Positions 2,003 to 16,214 of a DNA stretch of 64,000 bases are shown here, in pieces (the first letter of the stretch is position 1; the number at the start of each line of letters is the position of its first letter). The notes below the pieces were generated by a model. The model saw only the letters and a list, made by a program, of their open reading frames with translations, was not told the DNA's origin and made no database searches. The DNA comes from Escherichia coli (lineage in GTDB: Bacteria > Pseudomonadota > Gammaproteobacteria > Enterobacterales > Enterobacteriaceae). The stretch is from assembly GCF_046105845.1 (NCBI RefSeq), contig NZ_CP151004.1. One strand, 5' to 3'. The position numbers and the translations under genes were made by a program.

Positions 2003-2917
2003 ATGAACAAAGTTAGCATATTAATGCCTGTTTATAATGTAGAAAAATATATTAGAGCTGCGATTGGTAGTATATTAAACCAAACATATCCGAATATAGA
2101 GTTAGTAATTGTAGACGATGCGTCTACTGACAATACATTACTCATTATAGATGAAATTGCGCAAAAAAATAATAACATAATTATTGTTCGCAATGATGTA
2201 AACTCTGGAATAACCGTAGCGCTAAACAAAGGTCTTAAATATTGTAGCGGTGATTATATAGCTCGAGCTGATGGTGATGACATACAAGATCCTTTACGAA
2301 TTCAAAAGCAAATAGACTTTCTAAAGGAGAATCAAGAATATGGATTGGTTGGATGTTGGATAAAAAACATAGATGAGTCAGGAAAACAAATAGCTTCATG
2401 TAAATATCCGGTTTCAGACTTAGAAGTGAGACAATGCGTTAGCTATACATCTCCCGTACTTCATATATGGTTAGCAAAGAAAGAAGTTTACGAAAAACTG
2501 AATGGATACAGGAATACAAATCCAGCTGAAGATTATGATTTTATTTTAAGATGTTTGGATTATGGTATAAGAATAGGGAACGTTCCGTATTATGGTTCAA
2601 TGATACGTTTACGTTCAGGGAGTACATTAACTGAATCTTCTTTAAAACAACGGGTTATATCAAACTATCTGTGTAAAAAATTTAAAAAAGGCATTATTAA
2701 TACAATTGATATCGAATCTGAACTACCTAAAACAAATGAACTTAAAATTATTACTAAATTGCATTCTTGGTCATGTTTCTTTTTAAAAAAAGCAATAGAG
2801 AACAAAAGGTCGTTAAAAGGGGCAGCTTATTTATGTTTGTCGCTTATAAGTCCTTTTACAGTTCAAAATATAATAAAGAGGCAGATTTTTAAAAGAAAAT
2901 GTAACAAGGGTTATTAA
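2003..2917 (+). CDS. family 2 glycosyltransferase (O-antigen)
   Basis: 304 aa; N-terminal SILMPVYNVEKYI...VIVDDASTD and ADGDD motifs typical of GT-A fold GT2; very AT-rich. Confidence 0.75.
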   Translation: MNKVSILMPVYNVEKYIRAAIGSILNQTYPNIELVIVDDASTDNTLLIIDEIAQKNNNIIIVRNDVNSGITVALNKGLKYCSGDYIARADGDDIQDPLRIQKQIDFLKENQEYGLVGCWIKNIDESGKQIASCKYPVSDLEVRQCVSYTSPVLHIWLAKKEVYEKLNGYRNTNPAEDYDFILRCLDYGIRIGNVPYYGSMIRLRSGSTLTESSLKQRVISNYLCKKFKKGIINTIDIESELPKTNELKIITKLHSWSCFFLKKAIENKRSLKGAAYLCLSLISPFTVQNIIKRQIFKRKCNKGY

Positions 2918-2918
2918 A

Positions 2919-3962
2919 TTGATAAAAATAGCAATAATATTACCATCATTGAAAAACGTTGGACCGAATAGAGTTGCACATACTCTTATTAACAAACTAA
3001 GTGATAAAGAAGGTGTATACCTAAAGGTTTTTTATATAAAAAAAGAATTAGGATTAAATTTTACTTGTGATACAGAACTTTTGACTTTAGTTAATGTACG
3101 AAAATTATATGCCTTCGATGTCTTGCATTCACATATGCTTAGGCCAGATGTCTTGGTTGGGCTACTTCCATTTTACAAAGGCCTTAAAATAAGCACAATC
3201 CATAATATAGTGACAGAAGATATACAATATACACATGGTAGTGTGATATCTAAAATTGTCTCTGAATTATGGTTTAGGATTTGGAATAGATTTGATAAGA
3301 TAGTCGTGCTATCAAAAGTAGCAAAAAAATACTATCTGGGACATGGGCTAAAATCTAAAAAATTAGAGATCATATATAATGGAATTGATCTGGATATAGG
3401 AAGTAATATCAATTATGAAGATAAGAAAATAATAGAGGAGTTTAAAGGAGACAGTACTCTTCTGGGAACACTTTGTTTAGCAAATCACAGGAAAGGTATA
3501 GAACAGATTCTTTATGCCTTGCCATTCTTACCTAATTATAAATTTATAATTATTGGTGATGGACCTGTAAGAGAATATTTAGAAAATTTAGCTATAAGTC
3601 TGAATGTAAGAGATCGATTTTTTATTCTGGGCTATAGAGAAAACGCTAAAGATTTACTAAAATATATCGATATTTATCTAATGCCAAGTAGATCGGAAGG
3701 ATTTGGTCTCGCATTGCTTGAGGCTGTTGCAGCAAAAATAACAGTAGTTTGCTCAAATATTCCAATATTTAAAGAAATCTTTACTGAACGACAAGTGTCT
3801 TTTTTTGAATTGGATAATACAAACTCACTTATTCAAGCGATACAGAACTCAATAAGTAATGATATAAATGACGCGTATATAAGGCTAAAACAAAATTATA
3901 GCTCAGATACGATGGCTCGATTATATCATGAATTATATATGACTTGTAAGGAAGTAAAATGA
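2919..3962 (+). CDS. family 1 (GT4-type) glycosyltransferase (O-antigen)
   Basis: 347 aa; C-terminal SRSEGFGLALLEAVAAK motif of retaining GT-B enzymes; TTG start inferred from ORF track. Confidence 0.7.
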   Translation: MIKIAIILPSLKNVGPNRVAHTLINKLSDKEGVYLKVFYIKKELGLNFTCDTELLTLVNVRKLYAFDVLHSHMLRPDVLVGLLPFYKGLKISTIHNIVTEDIQYTHGSVISKIVSELWFRIWNRFDKIVVLSKVAKKYYLGHGLKSKKLEIIYNGIDLDIGSNINYEDKKIIEEFKGDSTLLGTLCLANHRKGIEQILYALPFLPNYKFIIIGDGPVREYLENLAISLNVRDRFFILGYRENAKDLLKYIDIYLMPSRSEGFGLALLEAVAAKITVVCSNIPIFKEIFTERQVSFFELDNTNSLIQAIQNSISNDINDAYIRLKQNYSSDTMARLYHELYMTCKEVK

Positions 3963-4741
3963 GGCTTTTCATATCAGTTGTATCACATGGACACGGGGAA
4001 TTAATTGAGTCATTAGGGTGTTTAGAAAAACTTTCGAAAAAATTTAGTGTTGTGCTTAAAGATAATAAAAATGAGTCCAACCTTAAAGAGTATTGCAAAC
4101 ATAATAATATAACCTACTTAAGTAGCGATATTCCTAGAGGATTTGGGGAGAATAATAATATTATATTTAACCATTGCTCATCAGAATTAGGCATGCAACC
4201 AGATGATATATTTGTAGTAATGAATCCAGATCTGATTATTGAAGAAAATGAATTGATAAAACTTAAAAATAGGATGATGTGTGAAAATATAGACTTTGCA
4301 ACTATAAATCTTTATAAAGATAGGGACTATCAAATATATGATCCATCAATCAGGAATTATCCGGGCATTCTTGACTTTGTAAATAGTTATCTTGGTTTCT
4401 CAAATAAAACAATAATAAATAAATCGGTAATTAAATCAAATACCCCGGTGCCATGGGCTGCAGGTTCATTCTTGGCATTAAAGTCTTATCTCTATAAAGA
4501 AGTTGATGGTTTTAATATCAGATATTTCATGTATTGCGAAGATATAGATATATGTATGAGGGTAGGTTCTTATGGTTATAAATTAATTTATATACCAACA
4601 ATAAAAGCCATACATCTAGCACGGCACAATAATCGACGTTTTTTATCAAAACATTTTTATTGGCATTTACGTAGTATGCTTATATATCTATCGGAAAAAA
4701 GAAAGTATGTCGCTAAAAAAAATAAGTGCTACACTAATTAA
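3959..4741 (+). CDS. WbbL-like rhamnosyltransferase (GT2 family)
   Basis: 260 aa; ISVVSHGHGELI N-terminus and YFMYCEDIDICMR segment resemble E. coli WbbL as I recall it; overlaps previous gene by 4 nt. Confidence 0.65.
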   Translation: MRLFISVVSHGHGELIESLGCLEKLSKKFSVVLKDNKNESNLKEYCKHNNITYLSSDIPRGFGENNNIIFNHCSSELGMQPDDIFVVMNPDLIIEENELIKLKNRMMCENIDFATINLYKDRDYQIYDPSIRNYPGILDFVNSYLGFSNKTIINKSVIKSNTPVPWAAGSFLALKSYLYKEVDGFNIRYFMYCEDIDICMRVGSYGYKLIYIPTIKAIHLARHNNRRFLSKHFYWHLRSMLIYLSEKRKYVAKKNKCYTN

Positions 4742-5936
4742 AGTGATCGGTGGAAATGCATTAGCTCAGATTATTGTCATATTAGGCACTCCTTTACTTA
4801 CGAGAATGTACCAACCGAGTGATTTTGGTATATATTCGACCATTATGGCAGTAGTTTTAATAGTGGGAATTATTGCATGTGGTAGATATGACCAGATAAT
4901 GTATAACTTCAATGACAAATATTCTTGGTATAAATGTTTTTGCAATGGGGTTGTTATAGCAACATATATATCTCTGTTCTGCTTAATTGTAACCAGTATA
5001 CTGTTTTTTTTATTTGAATTTGATGTGACTTACTTTATAATTGCACCTTCAGTGTTGACATTTGCGATTTTACAGTTATATACATCTTATTTTAGCTTAT
5101 ATGCCTATTACAGAATAATAATAATATTAAATATCATTCGTTCTTCAAGTTTAATTGTATTACAATTGATGTTGTTTAAAGTTATTGCAAATGGACTTGT
5201 CGTGAGCTTTCTAATATCGCAAATAATATGCGTTTTGTTTTGCTTAAGCTTCGCGGGGAAACTGAACAAAAATTTTAATTTTGAATTTAAAGTGGTTTTT
5301 ATTAAAGCTAGAGAAGCTGGATTGAGTTCTGTACAATCTCTTGCTAATTCCTTTTCATCACAATTACCTGTTCTTTTTATTCCTAGCCAATATGGGTATT
5401 ATACCGTTGGTCTATATGGATTAGCTGTGAGGTTGACTCAGATACCAATTATTTTTTTTACAAATGCAGTTAGGCCATATATATTAGGAGAATTAAATAA
5501 AAAGAAAAATGATTATCGTCTTTTATCAAAAATCCTATGGAGAAGTTCGGCTTTATTATTGATTTTAAGTATTCTTGGGATAGTTCTCATTAATTTATTT
5601 GCGGAAGATTTTTTTAAGTTTTATGCTGGTGATGAATGGAAAGACGCAGGTAAAATAGCCTCTGTTTTGTCATGGTGGCTATTAATTGCATTCGCTAATG
5701 TTACGTCGACTTCATATCTAACTGTTGTGGGGCGATTTAAATCGTTATTTATCTATGATATGCTTCTATTGGTATTCAGATTAATGTCAGTATGCTATAG
5801 TTTTTATGCGGATTTATCATTCTTAAACTTTATATATATTTATTCAATACTTGGTATGTTTTTTAATCTAGGTATTATAGGTTATGCAATAAAATGTGGA
5901 ATTCAAGATGCAAAAAATATTAATTGTTACAGCTGA
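4707..5936 (+). CDS. wzx: O-antigen flippase Wzx (MOP-family polytopic membrane protein)
   Basis: 409 aa, hydrophobic throughout with many predicted TM segments; position within O-antigen cluster. Confidence 0.7.
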   Translation: MSLKKISATLIKVIGGNALAQIIVILGTPLLTRMYQPSDFGIYSTIMAVVLIVGIIACGRYDQIMYNFNDKYSWYKCFCNGVVIATYISLFCLIVTSILFFLFEFDVTYFIIAPSVLTFAILQLYTSYFSLYAYYRIIIILNIIRSSSLIVLQLMLFKVIANGLVVSFLISQIICVLFCLSFAGKLNKNFNFEFKVVFIKAREAGLSSVQSLANSFSSQLPVLFIPSQYGYYTVGLYGLAVRLTQIPIIFFTNAVRPYILGELNKKKNDYRLLSKILWRSSALLLILSILGIVLINLFAEDFFKFYAGDEWKDAGKIASVLSWWLLIAFANVTSTSYLTVVGRFKSLFIYDMLLLVFRLMSVCYSFYADLSFLNFIYIYSILGMFFNLGIIGYAIKCGIQDAKNINCYS

Positions 5937-6933
5937 GAACGGTTGGTTTGCGCAGGGTAAATTCCCTTGGGAAAGTATGGATATTGAAAGGATAAAGAGA
6001 AGGTTGGAAAGTAATAATAAAATTGTTAATGTGACTACTTTTCAATTTCTCAAAGATAATATTGCCTCGCTGAAAGATTACATAATAATATATACATCAT
6101 CTCAACGACTGGAACATAAATATTACATACAAGATATAATGTTCTTATTAAAAGATAACAATACTCTTATCCCTAACTATGAATCACTTTTGGCGCATGA
6201 AAACAAAGGATTTCAAAGTTTACTTGATAAGAAATATAATTTGGGTTTAATAAAGTCTGAATATTATTGCGATATTTGTGAAGTAAAGAATATTAAAAAT
6301 TTGAATTATCCCCTCGTTTATAAATCTGTGAATGGCGCATCATCAATGGGGGTAAAAAAAGTCCACAACACAGAAGAAATGTATAAATATGTTAAACAAC
6401 CTTGCTCAATTTCATTGGAATTATTGAAAAGAAAACTAAAAAAATATATTTTTAAAAGCAAATATAATCATCAGTGGGAGAAATATCTGTCATTTGCGCA
6501 ACAAAGATTTATTATTCAAGGTTTCATTCCTGATTTACAATATGATTTTAAGGTGTTGATTTTTGGTAAAAAATATTATCTCTTAAAGAGGTTCGTCGCT
6601 GAGAATGATTTTAAAGCTAGTGGCAGTGGGTTGCATTCGAGAAATATTGGTAGTGATTTGAAAATCGTGTTAGATTTCGCAAGAGGTATTAAAAATAAAT
6701 TTAGATCGCACATATATTCTTTAGATATTTGTGTGAAAAATAAAGAACCACACCTTATTGAGTTTCAAATGACGCACGTTGGTCCTGTTACGTTGAGTGA
6801 ATCTGATCACTATTTTATTTACAACGCAACAACAAATAACTGGGAAAAGGTGTTTTCTTTAAGTTCTCTTGAAGATGAATTTTCTAATGCAGTAGAAGAG
6901 TATATAAATGAAAGTGATTCATATAGTGCATAA
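5896..6933 (+). CDS. hypothetical protein, possible ATP-grasp-like enzyme (O-antigen modification?)
   Basis: 345 aa soluble ORF inside the O-antigen cluster; weak motif-level resemblance to ATP-grasp (KSVNGASSMGVKKV, FIIQGFIP, LIEFQMTHVGP); alternative start at 5908. Confidence 0.45.
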   Translation: MEFKMQKILIVTAENGWFAQGKFPWESMDIERIKRRLESNNKIVNVTTFQFLKDNIASLKDYIIIYTSSQRLEHKYYIQDIMFLLKDNNTLIPNYESLLAHENKGFQSLLDKKYNLGLIKSEYYCDICEVKNIKNLNYPLVYKSVNGASSMGVKKVHNTEEMYKYVKQPCSISLELLKRKLKKYIFKSKYNHQWEKYLSFAQQRFIIQGFIPDLQYDFKVLIFGKKYYLLKRFVAENDFKASGSGLHSRNIGSDLKIVLDFARGIKNKFRSHIYSLDICVKNKEPHLIEFQMTHVGPVTLSESDHYFIYNATTNNWEKVFSLSSLEDEFSNAVEEYINESDSYSA

Positions 6934-7966
6934 TTATTATGGATTTAGCGGTGCATCTCTTCAGGCAAAAAATTTAGCAAGGGCTTTGAATAATTATAGT
7001 CCGCATATTGAACAAATATTTGTGACTAGATGTCAGTGTTGTATTTCAAAATTAAATGACCATGATCAATTTAAGGTGATAGAGATACCGATATCATATA
7101 AACGACTTTGGCATTTTTTTCTCCTGTGTAAATCAATTAAGCCGGATGTTGTACATTTTCATGGGGCTGATTTCGGTCTGCTAAGTATTTGTGCTATTCT
7201 AAAAATACCAGTTTATTGGAAATCAACTCTATTAGATAGTGATGATTTTTATACATTATTGCATCGTGGTTCTTTGAGGAAATTTAAGTTTTGGTTGTTG
7301 AAGTTCATCTCCATAAATAACACGTTAACTAAGCAAATATATAAAGTTAACCGCCAATATATTCCTACAACTAAATTAGTTACGATTCCAAATGGTGTAA
7401 GCATTTCTTGTTGTACACACAGGAATGAGCTGAAAAAAGAAAAAAATGTTTTAATAATATCTGCAATCATACCAAGAAAAAAGATTATCGAAGGGATAAG
7501 ATTTTATAAAGATAACTTTGAAAACAAAGGATATAAACTTTTGATAATTGGCCCTGATAATGAAGAACTTGATGGTTTCGAAGCAAACTACGTAACGAAA
7601 TGTAAGAGTTTAAGTAATAATAATATCCATTTTTTAGGTAAATTGAAACATCAAAGCGTAAATGAAATAATGTGTCGCTCTCAATTTTTAATCCATTTAT
7701 CTGAGCGAGAAGGCATGCCAAACGTTGTATTGGAGGCGCTGGCCAGTGGTGTCTATCCGATTATAGGAGAAATGGGTGGACTTGCTTATGAGATTATTGA
7801 AAATGAATCGTATGGTTTTATTTTTAATAACAAAAACAAGTTTGATTTAAATAAATACACTGGTGTTAATATAATGGGGATGGATATAATTGATAAAAAA
7901 TATTCATTCGATGTGATTTCAAAAAAAACAGTTAATATATATACGAAACTTATTGGTGGAAAATGA
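6908..7966 (+). CDS. family 1 (GT4-type) glycosyltransferase (O-antigen)
   Basis: 352 aa; SEREGMPNVVLEALASG motif; AT-rich. Confidence 0.7.
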   Translation: MKVIHIVHNYYGFSGASLQAKNLARALNNYSPHIEQIFVTRCQCCISKLNDHDQFKVIEIPISYKRLWHFFLLCKSIKPDVVHFHGADFGLLSICAILKIPVYWKSTLLDSDDFYTLLHRGSLRKFKFWLLKFISINNTLTKQIYKVNRQYIPTTKLVTIPNGVSISCCTHRNELKKEKNVLIISAIIPRKKIIEGIRFYKDNFENKGYKLLIIGPDNEELDGFEANYVTKCKSLSNNNIHFLGKLKHQSVNEIMCRSQFLIHLSEREGMPNVVLEALASGVYPIIGEMGGLAYEIIENESYGFIFNNKNKFDLNKYTGVNIMGMDIIDKKYSFDVISKKTVNIYTKLIGGK

Positions 7967-9084
7967 AAGAAGAAAGTCATGATAATGATAAAGGAGTCTC
8001 TTTTATCGGTTTTTTATGGCTACTGGCATGTGGGTTATATATAACAAGGATAACTGCTATTAGTCCTGTTTATCTGGTTTTTATTCTCGCATTAATGTTA
8101 GCTATTCTTACAAATATTAATTGCGGGAAATATAAGGTTTCTGTTTTTACACTACTAAGTTTAATAATACTATTACTTTCAATATTTCTTTTTTTTAATT
8201 CACAAATACCTCTCGTAATTAATCTGTTGATAGTGTTACTATCACCAATGCTAGTGGATTCTTATTATAAGAGGCGATATATTACAAAACAAAATTTATT
8301 GAATGTGTTTTTATTTTATTCCTTGGTTTTCATTCTTGATGGTTTTTGGCGAATTAAACATCCCTATCTTGAACATGTAGATAAACTAGAAGAACTGGGC
8401 ATCGGCTTTCAAATATATAAAGTGAATTCATTCATGTATTCAGATTCTAATTTTGTTGGCCTGGAAGCTGTTTTTATACTATCTTGTTTTCTTTACATGT
8501 TTAAAGGTGTTCGACGGACTGGATTACTTCGGATAAAATATTTTTTCGTTTTTTGTGCTTTATTTTTGGGGGTTCTGTTAACTTTTTCTAGGGCTGCTAT
8601 CATAGCAATGATTTTACTTTTTATATTTTTCATTTTGATGAGGAGTAAATTTATTAAAACTGTTTCGTATATGTTAGCGCCAGTATTACTTGTGGTTTTT
8701 TCATGGTTTATATATAAGAGATTTACGGATGATATAAGTTTTGAGAGTAAATTTAATTTAATTAGGTATACTCTTGAATACATTAAAGATAGTGATATTG
8801 ATATGATATTGCTAGGTGTTGGTCTGGGAAATGCAGTCGAAGTAATTGGTATGGGGGCACATAATCTATTTTTGACTTTCTTAATCGAAACTGGTGTTAT
8901 TGGTTTAGTATTGTTTTTAGTTTTATTATGCATTATGTGGTTCTATCTCAAAGAAGATGCAATCATCATCATGCTTCCATTTCTAATAGCATCAATGTCG
9001 CTCGGGACAACCGCAGTACCTTACTTTTTTACCTTTACTTGGTTATGTATTCTTTACAAAAGAAAATTGTTTAATGTCGTCTGA
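7963..9084 (+). CDS. wzy: O-antigen polymerase Wzy (polytopic membrane protein)
   Basis: 373 aa, extremely hydrophobic with multiple TM segments; only remaining membrane protein in the cluster besides wzx. Confidence 0.6.
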   Translation: MKEESHDNDKGVSFIGFLWLLACGLYITRITAISPVYLVFILALMLAILTNINCGKYKVSVFTLLSLIILLLSIFLFFNSQIPLVINLLIVLLSPMLVDSYYKRRYITKQNLLNVFLFYSLVFILDGFWRIKHPYLEHVDKLEELGIGFQIYKVNSFMYSDSNFVGLEAVFILSCFLYMFKGVRRTGLLRIKYFFVFCALFLGVLLTFSRAAIIAMILLFIFFILMRSKFIKTVSYMLAPVLLVVFSWFIYKRFTDDISFESKFNLIRYTLEYIKDSDIDMILLGVGLGNAVEVIGMGAHNLFLTFLIETGVIGLVLFLVLLCIMWFYLKEDAIIIMLPFLIASMSLGTTAVPYFFTFTWLCILYKRKLFNVV

Positions 9085-9102
9085 CATTGGATAGGAAACA
9101 GT

Positions 9103-10110
9103 ATGAATATTTTAGTTACCGGTGGCTTAGGATATATAGGCTCTCATACTTTAATTCGATTGATTGAGCTTAAGCATAACATCATAGTGGTTGATAACCT
9201 TTCAAACTCTAAAGCAAGTGTGATCGAGCGAATAAAATCACTGAGTGGTGGAGACTTTATATTTTATAACTGTGATATTTGTAATGCTAAGTGTCTGCAA
9301 GAGATATTCTCTAAACATAATATCAATAAAGTCATTCATTTTGCCGGATTGAAATCAGTTTCAGAGTCAGGTAAGGCACCTCTAACATATTATCACAATA
9401 ATGTAGTTGGAACGTTAAATTTATTGAAGGTAATGTATTCAAATGGAATAAAGGATATTATATTTAGTTCTTCTGCAACTGTATACGGGGTGCCAGATAT
9501 TATACCTTTGACTGAAAAATGCGTAACTGGAGGAACTACAAATCCTTATGGAACCAGTAAACACATGGTCGAGCAAATCTTAATGGATTTAATTAAGTCT
9601 GATGGCGATTGGAATATAACAATTCTTCGATATTTTAATCCTATTGGAGCCCATCCTTCAGGAGAGATTGGGGAGGACCCGCAAGGAGTACCTAATAATT
9701 TAGTACCTTACGTAACTAAAGTCGCAATTGGAGATTTACCTTTTTTAACCATTTATGGCGATGATTACAGTACTCCTGATGGAACAGGAATCAGAGATTA
9801 TATTCATGTTTGTGACTTAGCTGAAGGGCATATAGCTGCATTGAACAATAAAGAAATAAGTGGTTTGCATATCTATAATTTAGGCACAGGTGTTGGCTCA
9901 TCTGTATTAGATATAATAAATACATTTGAGCAAGTTAATCATGTTTCGATTCCTTATCGTATATCTAAAAGGCGAGAGGGAGATGTCGCGCAATGCTGGG
10001 CTGACCCAACATTGATTCAAACTAAGTTAAATTGGCGTGCAAAATATAATCTTGAGGACATGCTTAAGCATGCTTGGCTTTGGCAACTCAAAAACAAGGG
10101 ATATGTTTAA
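9103..10110 (+). CDS. UDP-hexose 4-epimerase (GalE/Gne family, NAD-dependent)
   Basis: 335 aa; VTGGLGYIGSH Rossmann motif, YGTSK catalytic motif; placed just before gnd. Confidence 0.85.
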   Translation: MNILVTGGLGYIGSHTLIRLIELKHNIIVVDNLSNSKASVIERIKSLSGGDFIFYNCDICNAKCLQEIFSKHNINKVIHFAGLKSVSESGKAPLTYYHNNVVGTLNLLKVMYSNGIKDIIFSSSATVYGVPDIIPLTEKCVTGGTTNPYGTSKHMVEQILMDLIKSDGDWNITILRYFNPIGAHPSGEIGEDPQGVPNNLVPYVTKVAIGDLPFLTIYGDDYSTPDGTGIRDYIHVCDLAEGHIAALNNKEISGLHIYNLGTGVGSSVLDIINTFEQVNHVSIPYRISKRREGDVAQCWADPTLIQTKLNWRAKYNLEDMLKHAWLWQLKNKGYV

Positions 10111-10217: not shown

Positions 10218-11624
10218 ATGTCAAAGCAACAGATCGGCGTCGTCGGTATGGCAGTGATGGGGCGCAACCTTGCGCTCAACATCGAAAGCCGTGGTTATAC
10301 CGTCTCTATTTTCAACCGTTCCCGTGAAAAGACGGAAGAAGTGATTGCCGAAAATCCAGGCAAGAAACTGGTTCCTTACTATACGGTGAAAGAGTTTGTT
10401 GAATCTCTGGAAACGCCTCGTCGCATCCTGTTAATGGTGAAAGCAGGTGCAGGCACGGATGCTGCTATTGATTCCCTCAAGCCATACCTCGATAAAGGTG
10501 ACATCATCATTGATGGCGGTAATACCTTCTTCCAGGACACCATTCGTCGTAACCGTGAGCTTTCTGCCGAAGGCTTTAACTTCATTGGTACCGGTGTCTC
10601 CGGTGGTGAAGAAGGCGCGCTGAAAGGTCCTTCCATTATGCCTGGTGGGCAGAAAGGAGCCTATGAACTGGTTGCACCGATCCTGACCAAAATCGCCGCA
10701 GTGGCTGAAGACGGTGAGCCATGCGTTACCTATATTGGTGCCGATGGCGCAGGTCACTATGTGAAGATGGTTCACAACGGTATTGAATACGGCGATATGC
10801 AGCTGATTGCTGAAGCCTATTCTCTGCTTAAAGGTGGTCTGAACCTCACCAACGAAGAACTGGCGCAGACGTTTACCGAGTGGAATAACGGTGAACTGAG
10901 CAGCTACCTGATCGACATCACCAAAGATATCTTCACCAAAAAAGATGAAGACGGTAACTACCTGGTTGATGTGATTCTGGATGAAGCAGCAAATAAAGGT
11001 ACGGGCAAATGGACCAGCCAGAGTGCGCTGGATCTCGGCGAACCTCTGTCGCTGATTACCGAGTCTGTGTTTGCACGTTATATCTCTTCTCTGAAAGATC
11101 AGCGCGTTGCCGCGTCTAAAGTTCTCTCTGGCCCGCAAGCGCAGCCAGCTGGCGACAAGGCTGAGTTCATCGAAAAAGTTCGTCGTGCTCTGTATCTGGG
11201 CAAAATCGTTTCTTACGCCCAAGGCTTCTCTCAGCTGCGTGCTGCGTCTGAAGAGTACAACTGGGATCTGAACTACGGCGAAATCGCAAAGATTTTCCGT
11301 GCTGGCTGCATCATCCGTGCACAGTTCCTGCAGAAAATCACCGATGCGTATGCCGAAAATCCGCAGATCGCTAACCTGTTGCTGGCTCCTTACTTCAAGC
11401 AAATTGCCGATGACTACCAGCAGGCGCTGCGCGATGTCGTCGCTTACGCAGTACAGAACGGTATCCCGGTTCCGACCTTCGCTGCTGCGGTTGCCTATTA
11501 TGATAGCTACCGTGCCGCTGTTCTGCCTGCGAACCTGATCCAGGCACAGCGTGACTATTTCGGTGCGCATACTTATAAGCGCATTGATAAAGACGGTGTG
11601 TTCCATACCGAATGGCTGGATTAA
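10218..11624 (+). CDS. gnd: 6-phosphogluconate dehydrogenase, decarboxylating
   Basis: 468 aa; near-identical to E. coli Gnd as I recall it. Confidence 0.98.
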
Positions 11625-11872: not shown

Positions 11873-13039
11873 ATGAAAATAACAATTTCAGGAACAGGTT
11901 ATGTTGGTCTTTCAAATGGTATTCTGATTGCGCAAAACCACGAAGTGGTTGCACTGGATATCGTTCAGGCCAAAGTGGACATGCTTAACAAGAAGCAGTC
12001 ACCGATTGTTGATAAGGAGATTGAAGAGTATCTGGCGACTAAAGATCTCAATTTCCGCGCTACGACAGATAAGTATGACGCGTATAAAAATGCCGATTAC
12101 GTTATTATTGCCACACCTACCGATTATGATCCGAAAACAAATTATTTTAATACCTCAAGTGTGGAAGCGGTCATTCGTGATGTGACAGAAATTAATCCCA
12201 ACGCGGTAATGATTATAAAATCAACTATCCCTGTTGGTTTTACAGAGTCCATTAAAGAACGGTTTGGTATTGAAAATGTGATCTTTTCGCCGGAGTTTTT
12301 GCGCGAAGGGAAAGCACTTTATGATAACTTGCATCCATCACGCATTGTGATTGGTGAGCAATCCGATCGCGCTGAACGTTTTGCAGCGTTATTACAGGAA
12401 GGCGCTATTAAGCAAGACATACCAACATTGTTTACTGACTCAACCGAGGCTGAGGCGATTAAACTTTTTGCCAACACTTATCTGGCTATGCGTGTAGCGT
12501 ATTTCAATGAACTTGATAGTTATGCTGAAAGCCTGGGGCTTAATTCACGCCAGATTATTGAGGGCGTATGCCTTGACCCGCGTATCGGTAATCACTACAA
12601 CAACCCGTCATTCGGTTATGGTGGTTATTGTCTGCCGAAAGATACCAAGCAGTTACTAGCAAATTACCAGTCTGTGCCGAATAACCTGATCTCGGCAATT
12701 GTTGACGCCAACCGCACGCGCAAAGATTTTATTGCCGATTCTATCCTTGCACGTAAACCGAAAGTTGTTGGCGTCTATCGTTTGATTATGAAGAGTGGTT
12801 CAGACAATTTCCGTGCTTCCTCGATTCAGGGTATTATGAAGCGAATCAAAGCGAAAGGCGTGCCTGTAATCGTTTATGAGCCAGCTATGAAAGAGGACGA
12901 TTTTTTCCGGTCACGCGTGGTACGTGATCTGGATGCATTCAAACAAGAAGCTGATGTTATTATTTCTAACCGTATGTCTGCCGATCTGGCTGATGTAGCA
13001 GATAAAGTTTATACGCGCGACTTGTTTGGCAATGATTAA
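11873..13039 (+). CDS. ugd: UDP-glucose 6-dehydrogenase
   Basis: 388 aa from ATG at 11873 ([16 protein letters not shown]); ORF-track start at 11846 is an upstream in-frame extension. Confidence 0.96.
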
Positions 13040-13104: not shown

Positions 13105-14109
13105 TCAAACTTTATAGAAGTTACGATACCATTCTACAAAGTTCTTTACCCCCTCTTTAACTGACGTTTCAGGTTTGAATCCTATTACGTCATACAGTGC
13201 TTTTGTATCAGCACTGGTTTCCAGTACATCACCGGGTTGGAGAGGCATCATATTTTTGTTGGCTTCAATACCCAGAGCCTCTTCTAAGGCATTGATATAG
13301 TCCATCAACTCCACAGGCGAACTATTACCTATGTTATAGATACGATATGGTGCTGAACTTGTTGCAGGCGAGCCTGTTTCTACAGCCCACTGTGGATCTT
13401 TTTCTGGAATAACATCCTGTAAGCGAATAATAGCTTCGGCAATATCATCAATATAAGTAAAGTCACGCTTCATTTTGCCGAAGTTGTAAACATCAATGCT
13501 TTTACCTTCCAGCATGGCTTTAGTAAATTTAAATAATGCCATATCCGGACGTCCCCATGGACCATAAACCGTAAAGAAACGCAGCCCTGTGGTCGGTAAG
13601 CCATACAAATGAGAATACGTATGGGCCATGAGTTCATTCGCTTTTTTAGTTGCTGCATAAAGCGAAACAGGATGATCTACAGAGTCATCTGTAGAGAAAG
13701 GCATCTTGCGGTTCATGCCATAAACAGAACTGGAGGAAGCGTAAAGTAGATGTTGAACATTATTATGGCGGCATCCTTCCAGTATGTTCAGGAATCCAAT
13801 CAGGTTTGCATCTGCATATGTATTGGGATTTTCAAGGGAGTAACGTACACCTGCTTGCGCAGCGAGGTTTATTACGCGATCGAACCGCTCGTCTGCAAAT
13901 AGTGCCGCCATTTTCTCACGATCGGCCAGGTCAATTTTATAAAAACTGAAATTGTCGTGCTTGAGTAAATCAAGTCGTGCTTGTTTGAGGTTGACATCGT
14001 AATAATCATTTAAGTTATCAATGCCTACAACCTGATGACCAGCTGCAAGAAGCCGTTTACTTACATAGAAACCGATAAAGCCAGCAGCTCCCGTAACCAG
14101 AAATTTCAT
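13105..14109 (-). CDS. gla: UDP-glucuronate 4-epimerase (NAD-dependent epimerase, Gla-like)
   Basis: 334 aa; [21 protein letters not shown] Rossmann N-terminus and overall resemblance to UDP-GlcA 4-epimerases. Confidence 0.75.
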
Positions 14110-14280
14110 TTATAATCCTCACTCAGGCTAGAATATAGCCAATCTTCATCTGGCATAACTGAAAGTTAAATCATACCGTTAGACAAGAAAAAAAGATAAT
14201 CGGTATCAGTTCTAAACCTGGCTGTTTTTTCTGGTAACGTGCTCATTTTGCAATCATAGCTGTTCTAAGCTGACTATTAG

Positions 14281-14388
<108 letters not shown>

Positions 14389-14534: not shown

Positions 14535-15512
14535 ATGAGAGTAGAAAATAATAATGTTTCTGGGCAAAACCATGACCCGGAACAGATTGATTTGATTGAT
14601 TTACTGGTGCAGTTGTGGCGTGGCAAGATGACAATTATCATCTCTGTCATTGTTGCTATTGCCCTGGCTATAGGGTATCTGGCCGTTGCCAAAGAAAAGT
14701 GGACTTCCACAGCTATCGTTACTCAACCTGATGTGGGGCAAATCGCTGGTTATACCAACGCGATGAATGTGATTTACGGATCGGCTGTACCGAAAGTCTC
14801 CGACATTCAGGCTTCACTTATCGGACGTTACAGCACTGCATTCTCAGCATTAGCGGAAACGCTGGATAACCAGGAAGAAGCAGAAAAGCTGACCATTGAG
14901 CCTACCGTCAAAAATCAGTCATTACCTTTAGCAGTTTCTTATGTTGGTGAAACACCTGAAGGTGCGCAGAAGCAGCTGGCGAAGTATATCCAGCAAGTTG
15001 ACGACCAGGTAAATGAAGAACTGGAAAAAGACCTGAAAGATAACATCGCGCTGCGTATGAAAAACTTGCAGGACTCTCTGAAAACCCAGGAAGTGGTTGC
15101 GCAGGAGCAGAAAGATCTGCGTATCCGTCAGATTCAGGAAGCGTTGCAGTATGCGAATCAGGCGCAGGTGACAAAGCCACAGGTTCAGCAGACTGAAGAT
15201 GTGACGCAAGATACGTTGTTCCTTTTGGGGAGCGAAGCGCTGGAGTCGATGATTAAGCATGAGGCGACCCGTCCGTTGGTGTTCTCACCAAACTACTATC
15301 AGACACGTCAAAACCTGCTGGATATCGAAAGCTTAAAGGTTGATGATCTTGATATTCATGCTTACCGTTATGTGATGAAACCCACGTTACCTATTCGTCG
15401 CGATAGCCCGAAAAAGGCAATTACCTTGATTCTGGCGGTGCTGTTGGGTGGCATGGTTGGCGCTGGGATTGTGCTGGGGCGTAATGCTCTACGCAATTAC
15501 AACGTGAAATAA
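14535..15512 (+). CDS. wzzB: O-antigen chain-length determinant
   Basis: 325 aa from MRVENNNVSGQNH; matches E. coli WzzB as I recall it; ORF-track start is an in-frame extension. Confidence 0.95.
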   Translation: MRVENNNVSGQNHDPEQIDLIDLLVQLWRGKMTIIISVIVAIALAIGYLAVAKEKWTSTAIVTQPDVGQIAGYTNAMNVIYGSAVPKVSDIQASLIGRYSTAFSALAETLDNQEEAEKLTIEPTVKNQSLPLAVSYVGETPEGAQKQLAKYIQQVDDQVNEELEKDLKDNIALRMKNLQDSLKTQEVVAQEQKDLRIRQIQEALQYANQAQVTKPQVQQTEDVTQDTLFLLGSEALESMIKHEATRPLVFSPNYYQTRQNLLDIESLKVDDLDIHAYRYVMKPTLPIRRDSPKKAITLILAVLLGGMVGAGIVLGRNALRNYNVK

Positions 15513-15534
15513 TCTTTGCAGCTTTAAAGAAAAT

Positions 15535-15567
15535 GGGCAGGGTGGTGACACCTTGCCCGTTTTTTTT
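15535..15567 (+). terminator. intrinsic terminator downstream of wzzB
   Basis: gggcagggtggtgacaccttgccc hairpin followed by nine T. Confidence 0.75.
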
Positions 15568-15568
15568 T

Positions 15569-15596
15569 GCCGGATGCGACAACAATATCGCATCCG
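15569..15596 (-). terminator. hairpin downstream of hisI (his operon 3' end)
   Basis: gccggatgcga...tcgcatccg stem-loop immediately 3' of hisI on the minus strand. Confidence 0.45.
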
Positions 15597-15609
15597 CTTA
15601 CCCCGCAAC

Positions 15610-16214
15610 TCACTGATGCCGTTTACGCAGGTTCTCAATTACCGTAGTTAAATCCAGATCCTGATCCTGCAACAGCACCAGCAGGTGATACATCAAATCA
15701 GATGCCTCGTTGGTCAGCTCAAAGCGGTCATGTACCGTTGCTGCCAGCGCAGTTTCCACGCCTTCTTCGCCCACTTTCTGCGCAATGCGCTTGGTGCCGC
15801 TGGCGTACAGTTTGGCGGTATAGGAGGTTTCCGGGTCGGCAGATTTGCGCTCGGCGAGCAGTTGTTCTAGTTGATACAGGAACAGCCACTGGTGAGCGGT
15901 GTTGCCGAAGCAGCTGCTGGTGCCTTTGTGGCAGGTCGGGCCGATGGGATTCGCCAGCACTAATAAAGTGTCGTTGTCGCAGTCCGGCGCAATGCTCACT
16001 ACGTTGAGGAAATTGCCCGACGTTTCGCCTTTGGTCCACAGTCGCTGTTTAGTGCGCGAGAAGAAGGTGACTTTGCCGCTTTCGATGGTTTTATCTAAGG
16101 CTTCCGGGTTCATATAGCCCAGCATTAACACTTCACCGGATACCGCGTGTTGCACAATCACCGGCATCAGTCCGTCGGTTTTTTCCCAGTCCAGTTCGCG
16201 ACGTTGTTGTTCTG

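Follow-up and report, generated by a model that had tools for sequence, protein, structure and literature searches.

A predicted uronic acid amidoligase of the ATP-grasp type in an Escherichia coli O-antigen cluster and its loss in O48

Introduction

Bacterial O-antigens often contain uronic acids to which amino acids are linked as amides, and in the antigens of Klebsiella and Proteus such amides matter for epitope specificity, e.g. the amide of galacturonic acid (GalA) with lysine in Proteus (PMC11989651). Which gene could attach an amino acid to an O-antigen sugar in Escherichia coli? We ask this question for one gene in the O-antigen cluster on a stretch of 64,000 nt of E. coli DNA (contig NZ_CP151004.1 of assembly GCF_046105845.1), which we call the window. 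The gene lies between the flippase gene wzx and a gene for a glycosyltransferase (GT) of the GT4 type, and it encodes a protein with the features of ATP-grasp enzymes. A preliminary description of the window, made from the DNA alone, had treated it as an unassigned open reading frame (ORF). It is indeed none of the GT, wzx, wzy or epimerase genes, but RefSeq already labels its product "ATP-grasp domain-containing protein", without a function. Thus, the kind of enzyme and the generic label were known before, and the functional assignment and the comparative system presented here are new. When we searched the literature for ATP-grasp together with O-antigen, wzx/wzy or amide, we found no paper in which an E. 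coli O-antigen is connected with such a gene, and the literature on the O-antigen genetics of Proteus and Enterobacter yielded structures and no gene assignment.

We conclude that the gene likely encodes a soluble cytoplasmic amidoligase of O-antigen synthesis that attaches an amino acid to GalA. The earlier proposal of a ligase that amidates a hexuronic acid with an amino acid is supported, short of proof, by a homologue in serogroup O110, by the loss of the gene in serogroup O48 and by fold matches to ligases.

The ATP-grasp gene is real and intact

The reading frame on the plus strand is uninterrupted from 5896 to 6933, but the GTG at 5896 is merely the first start codon that a mechanical ORF call reaches. 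The true start is probably the ATG at 5908 (MQKILIVTAENG..., encoding MQKILIV...), because homologues align from that residue and because RefSeq uses it (WP_073278737.1, in a 99.3%-identical genome). The frame described earlier is therefore confirmed, whereas the product is probably 341 aa long and not 345 aa. The gene overlaps the wzx stop (5936) by 29 nt at its start and the start of the next GT gene (6908) by 26 nt at its end, as expected within an operon. Its G+C content is 29.5%, that of the serogroup-specific block (2003-10110) is 30.8% and that of gnd is 50.8%; an ORF of 1 kb at 29.5% G+C far exceeds chance expectation. Compared to strain JNEC-KY203, seven codons of the gene differ, of which six are synonymous and one is non-synonymous. 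Hundreds of homologues exist. The open frame, the homologues and the mostly synonymous strain differences all bear out the earlier view that the ORF is real, and it is also intact.

Fold and conserved motifs

As a single sequence, the protein matches the Pfam family Dala_Dala_lig_C (residues 127-165, 2.4e-5) and the NCBIfam Ddl models with about 20 bits, where the cut-offs are 243-246 bits. Its best single-sequence match in PDB is 3vot, an L-amino acid ligase (E 0.0096). A profile from 55 homologues matched only ATP-grasp chains in PDB, with 3vot at 1.4e-7. An AlphaFold model based on the same alignment is confident (predicted local distance difference test, pLDDT, 92; predicted template modelling score, pTM, 0.89), and a structure search with this model found only ATP-grasp structures, among which ligases outscored kinases and the closest included RimK. 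In the model, the protein has the three-domain alpha/beta fold that is predicted to clamp ATP between the central and the C-terminal domain. The ATP-grasp likeness that had been noticed by eye thus holds in Pfam, NCBIfam and PDB matches and in a high-confidence model, and no non-ligase fold was matched in the structural check that had been proposed.

Conservation was judged across the alignment of 55 sequences. The segments that the preliminary description had singled out, a Lys followed by a Gly/Ser-rich stretch, FIIQGFIP and a C-terminal EFQ segment, all occur in the protein, at positions that are invariant in the family (K139, Q204 and E285/Q287, respectively; Table 1). The ATP-grasp hallmark of a conserved Lys with a flexible Gly-rich loop and a second Lys upstream is found as K139 with NGASSMG and as K100. 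D273, E285 and Q287 are presumed ligands of Mg2+ and ATP, by analogy to the general ATP-grasp architecture and not by residue-level superposition.

We compared the protein to the known families that it resembles. Ddl shares the Lys and the Gly-rich ATP loop, which are the source of the sole Pfam and NCBIfam matches once marginal Pfam matches to Glyco_hydro_66 and LidA are rejected. A role as D-Ala-D-Ala ligase was rejected as well, since only about 40 residues (127-165) match, with 20.1 bits against a cut-off of 245.65. According to the model, LysX, ArgX and RimK are structurally nearest, with about 13% sequence identity. These enzymes act on the C-terminal carboxylate of a carrier protein, whereas the window enzyme presumably acts on the sugar acid of a lipid-linked glycan. 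Around the window gene, there is no LysW or S6 partner and there are no lysine or arginine biosynthesis genes; its neighbours are O-antigen genes. Membership in the RimK/LysX/ArgX group was rejected because the window protein has no RimK Pfam match and only two of the 55 relatives have one, so that the likeness is structural only.

A family of ATP-grasp proteins in polysaccharide loci

The family of the window protein has no model of its own in Pfam or NCBIfam, and its members give scattered weak matches to Dala_Dala_lig_C, ATP-grasp_4, TupA-like and RimK. Relatives were found with two peptide patterns, the H-E-N-K and NDF(K/R)ASGSG motifs. The family comprises 670 representatives (at 50% identity) with E <= 0.001 and 140 with E <= 1e-30, nearly all of 320-360 aa. 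In contigs from one genome per species, 518 stretches encode a relative; they come from Proteobacteria, Bacteroidota, Firmicutes, Planctomycetes and an archaeal metagenome-assembled genome. Because of full-length homology and the two shared motifs, we assign the window protein by sequence to this large uncharacterised family of standalone ATP-grasp proteins of about 340 aa in polysaccharide loci, which includes a gene of E. coli O110.

We counted the neighbours of the family gene in 88 family loci, on the same strand and within 2.6 kb. A GT4 glycosyltransferase gene is found in 68 of them, usually downstream, and a Wzx flippase gene in at least 26. By analogy to the GT/ATP-grasp fusion Cj1438 of Campylobacter jejuni, this suggests that the ATP-grasp enzyme and the adjacent GT4 are a functional pair. 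It is highly improbable that the window gene encodes a kinase of the ATP-grasp type, or an enzyme with no role in the O-antigen that lies in the cluster by chance: the structure matches place ligases above kinases, the coding sequence overlaps those of wzx and of a GT gene, and GT4 adjoins the family gene in most loci.

Close orthologues with 48-62% identity occur in Enterobacter cloacae, Vibrio vulnificus, V. parahaemolyticus and Shewanella marinintestina. All of them lie in similar rml/wzx/GT4/wzy loci, of which that of E. cloacae is fully syntenic. Within 10 kb of every close orthologue there are ugd and a gla-like epimerase gene.

A further homologue is found in Colwellia psychrerythraea 34H (CP000083.1, 2175438-2196436; loci L003/L004), after wzx at about 15027-16030. 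This locus includes nonulosonic-acid genes (NeuB, CMP-transferase, aminotransferase and formyltransferase), and a nearby ugd is seemingly split into 103 and 220 aa. We take the capsule of this strain to contain GalA with threonine; however, we did not use it as evidence because of the nonulosonic-acid genes and the broken ugd.

A homologue in the O110 cluster

A low-stringency blastn search found one other matching E. coli gene, and the match covers the NDF(K/R)ASGSG region, the sole stretch that the two genes share at the DNA level. This gene sits in genomes with "O110 family" wzx and wzy genes according to RefSeq, directly upstream of wzx and with ugd and gla downstream. The O110 protein (WP_062874241.1) aligns to the window protein over the full length with 32% identity (E 2e-37). 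If it starts at an in-frame ATG further upstream, it has 335 aa, as does UniProt A0A0A8J886, a protein of E. coli that matches the window model in Foldseek (template modelling score 0.86), and the two probably correspond. Neither a profile search nor look-ups of 10 candidate clusters had located the gene of A0A0A8J886, whereas blastn succeeded in O110. Further blastn searches with the O110 ATP-grasp gene, with the O110 CapA gene described below or with a 65%-identical metagenomic cluster found no additional E. coli serogroups.

According to the title of a paper cited in a review (PMC7685785), D-GalA in the O110 O-antigen is amidated with D-allo-threonine. Thus, the comparison with characterised O-antigen clusters, which had been proposed earlier, led to a homologue in a serogroup whose O-antigen has, by that title, the predicted type of amide. 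The O-antigens of O46 and O134 contain glucuronic acid (GlcA) with D-allo-Thr. The O110 gene and the window gene belong to the same family, both adjoin wzx and both clusters are flanked by ugd and gla; they differ in backbone and glycosyltransferases, and in a CapA/MslH-like gene that is present in O110 and lacking in the window.

This additional O110 gene belongs to the CapA/PGA_cap family (NZ_CM176588.1; L090:13623-14777), and a CapA/PGA_cap gene adjoins the ATP-grasp gene in 20 of the 88 family loci, from several phyla. The only solved relatives of the O110 CapA-family protein are chains of 8gq9, 8gqa, 8gqb, 8itg and 8ith, and it matches a single NCBIfam model, "lasso peptide C-terminal Trp epimerase MslH" (E 3e-13), whose cut-off it misses by a wide margin. 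By its sequence relatives, it is a candidate amino-acid epimerase. Inversion at C-alpha converts L-threonine (2S,3R) to D-allo-threonine (2R,3R). An MslH-like enzyme acting on GalA-linked L-Thr, of which the carboxylate is free, would explain the D-allo-Thr of O110. The pairing with such an epimerase would also imply that the product of the ATP-grasp enzyme bears an amino acid that is attached via its amine and has a free carboxylate. Together, the two genes could form a module for decorating polysaccharides with D-amino acids. Since the cluster in the window encodes no CapA-like epimerase, we predict an L-amino acid here and not D-allo-Thr as in O110.

Comparison to TupA-like enzymes

In C. 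jejuni, the TupA-like ATP-grasp domain at the C-terminus of Cj1438 (Cj1438C) amidates capsular GlcA at its C-6 carboxylate (PMC11800379). The domain is fused to a GT, which then transfers N-acetylgalactofuranosamine (GalfNAc) to the glucuronamide (PMC11800379). Like Cj1438C, the window protein is an ATP-grasp enzyme of a surface-polysaccharide cluster that is predicted to form the C-6 amide of a uronic acid on a growing glycan and to be coupled to a GT, although the coupling is by fused domains in Cj1438 and by adjacent overlapping genes in the window. Further differences are that Cj1438C is part of a larger protein of 776 aa and makes ethanolamine and serinol amides of GlcA, whereas the window protein is a standalone protein of 341 aa from a separate sequence family, the acid is probably GalA and the amine is probably an amino acid. 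The TupA-like Pfam family PF14305 matches seven of the 55 relatives at E <= 0.001, all weakly (best 3.4e-5); judged by these matches, it is a related but separate family. The genomic context typical of TupA-like enzymes is also that of the window gene: a surface-polysaccharide locus, a supply of uronic acid and an adjacent GT. In V. alginolyticus, deletion of a TupA-family ATP-grasp gene of the capsule locus strongly lowered capsule yield and phage adsorption (PMC11382117).

Could the amine be something other than an amino acid, that is, ethanolamine phosphate, serinol phosphate, a polyamine or ammonia attached to the uronic acid? Cj1438C, the only polysaccharide ATP-grasp amidoligase with biochemical proof, uses amino-alcohol-type amines (PMC11800379), and nothing in the sequence identifies the amine of the window enzyme. 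However, the cluster lacks any aminotransferase, phosphatase or further gene for making or trimming a special amine, the E. coli homologue belongs to a serogroup for which the cited title names an amino acid amide, and family members recur next to a CapA/MslH-like protein that is related to a peptide C-terminal epimerase. Furthermore, to our knowledge, primary amides such as N-acetylgalactosaminuronamide (GalNAcAN) are made by asparagine-synthetase-like amidotransferases and not by ATP-grasp enzymes. We therefore consider a non-amino-acid amine unlikely.

Loss of the gene in O48

The genes of the E. coli O48 cluster are arranged as in the window, with about 86% DNA identity over the serogroup-specific block. 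In O48, however, only 209 bp separate wzx from the GT4 gene (NZ_AP027960.1; L002:9929-10137), in the place of window positions 5937-6907. Homology between the two runs for 33 nt beyond the wzx stop (O48 MLKIAIVIFEYACFV*GEFT*G, window MQKILIVTAENGWFAQGKFPWES) and restarts 14 nt before the GT4 start (O48 ...YINESDPYST, window ...YINESDSYSA). What is left of the ATP-grasp gene in O48 is thus a degenerate N-terminal stretch of about 20 codons, interrupted by two stops, and the 12 or so codons at its end, and between these stubs lie about 160 nt of unrelated AT-rich DNA. The presence of both stubs implies that O48 descends from a cluster with the ATP-grasp gene of which the interior was lost. That presence is the ancestral state is further supported by the complete syntenic cluster of E. 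cloacae, which has the gene (62% identity). From this DNA comparison, O48 is a deletion derivative, i.e. a natural knockout, of the cluster type in the window.

Protein identity between the window and O48 is 78% for Wzx, 78% for the adjacent GT4 and 76% for Wzy (compared over window 4707-9084 and L002:8705-12314), whereas it is 86-94% for the other three GTs and 99% for gnd and ugd. Such divergence around the deletion would be expected if the O-unit changed; a recombination mosaic would give the same pattern. Models for O48 wzx or wzy are lacking in NCBIfam.

It had been argued that an identical gene in a serogroup without an amide would speak against an amidoligase. Here, the related serogroup O48 is without the gene, and it is absent from the non-exhaustive ("e.g.") list of amide-bearing serogroups in the review PMC7685785, which gives one N-acetylglucosamine and one N-acetylgalactosamine for O48. 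The comparison thus covers two serogroups: O110 has the gene and, by the cited title, an amino acid amide of a uronic acid, and O48 lacks the gene.

The cluster type of the window is rare, as its ATP-grasp gene occurs in two of 5426 complete genomes. The window is part of an E. coli chromosome, and its region at 30-34 kb has matches in 5421 of these 5426 genomes. Strains JNEC-KY203 (NZ_AP045179.1) and 2017.17.01CC (NZ_AP027822.1) are examples that carry the cluster. The 90% identity cluster of the protein has 47 member sequences, of which one listed member is found on 97 contigs, including one E. fergusonii entry, and the UniProt names suggest that the gene cluster is one of the novel Og types. 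Is the gene also decaying or functionless in the window, as it is in O48? The O48 lineage dropped the gene yet still makes an O-antigen. Nevertheless, we find a functionless gene hardly credible: the window frame is intact with every family-invariant residue present, strain differences are six synonymous to one non-synonymous, members of the 90% identity cluster are numerous, and orthologues are conserved across genera.

Proposed function

We propose that the enzyme uses ATP to convert the C-6 carboxylate of GalA in the O-unit to an acyl phosphate. A common L-amino acid would then attack this intermediate through its alpha-amino group, giving a GalA-6-(amino acid) amide. GalA would be supplied via ugd and gla beside the cluster, which are the sole pathway to a carboxylate-bearing sugar near it, and the ATP-grasp gene is the sole enzyme gene of the cluster apart from the sugar-nucleotide, GT and processing genes. 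The substrate would be the undecaprenyl-PP-linked unit at the cytoplasmic face or, less probably, UDP-GalA. As ATP is needed, the reaction should be cytoplasmic and should thus precede flipping by Wzx. Ligation and the step of the adjacent GT4 glycosyltransferase are probably coupled. The O-antigen expected from this scheme is an O48-like pentasaccharide with an amidated uronic acid.

Several observations weigh against this assignment. First, the window protein has no PF14305 match at an independent E <= 10 and no match to an NCBIfam amidoligase. Second, the Asn that usually binds Mg is replaced by Gln (Q287). Third, the O110 homologue is only 32% identical and itself uncharacterised. Fourth, the O48 O-antigen is presumed to contain free GalA and rhamnose and no amino acid, which the review supports only indirectly, by the amino sugars that it gives for O48 and by the absence of O48 from a non-exhaustive list. 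Fifth, a UDP-sugar 6-dehydrogenase gene lies within 10 kb in just 17 of the 43 full-length distant family loci, so that the family may use other carboxylates.

The last point bears on a further alternative, in which the enzyme acts on another carboxylate, either building a RimK- or TupA-like peptide or poly-amino-acid tail or joining an acid to a sugar hydroxyl or amine. RimK, which is among the closest structures, adds successive glutamates; ester formation is also within the range of ATP-grasp enzymes; and about 60% of the full-length distant loci are without a uronic acid dehydrogenase gene within 10 kb. On the other hand, the cluster contains no pathway for a free-amine sugar (no DegT-type aminotransferase), ugd and gla are kept near all close orthologues, and the chemistry of O110, by the title cited above, is a single amino acid on GalA. 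We regard this alternative as improbable and prefer amidation of GalA with an amino acid.

More broadly, the protein may represent an unassigned family that makes uronoyl-amino-acid amides in O110, perhaps O46 and O134, Proteus, Providencia, Vibrio and marine bacteria. With a CapA/MslH-like partner, the L-amino acid would be epimerised in place, and loss of the ligase would have split O48 from the O48-like type as a new serogroup. Our confidence in this broader proposal is evenly balanced between belief and doubt. If true, hundreds of genes labelled "hypothetical" or "ATP-grasp domain" in polysaccharide loci would become annotatable, which would improve the prediction of glycan structures from sequence, as used in serotyping, in the prediction of phage receptors and in the design of glycoconjugates. 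The case would further illustrate how one serogroup can split in two by the loss of a decorating gene. Together, the window gene, its O110 homologue and the O48 deletion form a directly testable system with one enzyme, two natural genotypes and a clear chemical read-out.

Genes of the cluster and minor observations

The gene order is rmlBDAC, GT2, GT, GT2, wzx, the ATP-grasp gene, GT4, wzy, a galE/gne-type epimerase gene, gnd, ugd, gla (on the opposite strand), wzz and the his operon. RefSeq annotation agrees with the neighbours named in the preliminary description, which were four glycosyltransferases, wzx, wzy and a 4-epimerase, then gnd, with gla nearby. Coordinates are listed in Table 1.

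Table 1. Coordinates in the window of the ATP-grasp gene, its conserved elements and neighbouring genes, and family loci with a CapA/PGA_cap gene
Feature	Position	Strand	Basis
Coding sequence of ATP-grasp enzyme, 341 aa, predicted uronoyl-amino-acid amidoligase	5908..6933	+	ORF call, homologue alignment, RefSeq start, predicted structure
GTG-initiated 4-codon extension, probably untranslated	5896..5907	+	No homologue aligns; RefSeq start corresponds to 5908
Codon of invariant K100, in H-E-N-K motif	6205..6207	+	Invariant in 55 sequences; motif is one of two peptide search patterns
K139 and Gly/Ser-rich loop KSVNGASSMG, putative ATP phosphate-binding element	6322..6351	+	Aligns to 3vot and Ddl structures; Pfam Dala_Dala_lig_C residues 127-165; K139 invariant
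FIIQGFIP strand and hinge, invariant Q204	6508..6531	+	Alignment; profile stretch 200-238 aligns to RimK
Invariant R228 and NDF(K/R)ASGSG motif, family signature	6589..6630	+	Invariant or near-invariant columns; used as search pattern
D273 ... E285-F-Q287, presumed Mg2+/ATP ligands, Q replacing usual N	6724..6768 (E285-F-Q287, 6760-6768)	+	All three invariant in 55 sequences
Three glycosyltransferases	2003-2917, 2919-3962, 3959-4741	+	RefSeq annotation; 86-94% identical to O48
wzx, O-unit flippase	4707..5936	+	RefSeq annotation; 78% identical to O48 Wzx
GT4 glycosyltransferase, overlaps ATP-grasp stop	6908..7966	+	RefSeq annotation; 78% identical to O48 counterpart
wzy, O-antigen polymerase	7963..9084	+	RefSeq annotation; 76% identical to O48 Wzy
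galE/gne-type UDP-hexose 4-epimerase	9103..10110	+	NCBIfam galE, 428 bits
ugd, UDP-glucose 6-dehydrogenase, supplies UDP-GlcA	11873..13039	+	RefSeq annotation
gla-type NAD-dependent epimerase, UDP-GlcA to UDP-GalA, presumed source of carboxylate substrate	13105..14109	-	RefSeq annotation, NCBIfam
Loci with CapA/PGA_cap beside ATP-grasp homologue	L013, L026, L030, L032, L035, L036, L056, L060, L068, L070, L072, L077-L079, L085, L089, L090, L091		

Two minor observations concern the region downstream of the serogroup-specific block. Between gla and wzzB, at about 14279-14371 of the window, lies a short N-terminally truncated pseudogene remnant according to the RefSeq annotation of a near-identical genome (L001:17384-17476), and the same remnant is annotated in O48 and O110 genomes. 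Antisense within gnd, there is an ORF of 391 aa (10431-11606, minus strand) to which RefSeq gives no annotation; it lies in a G+C-richer gene and is almost certainly spurious.

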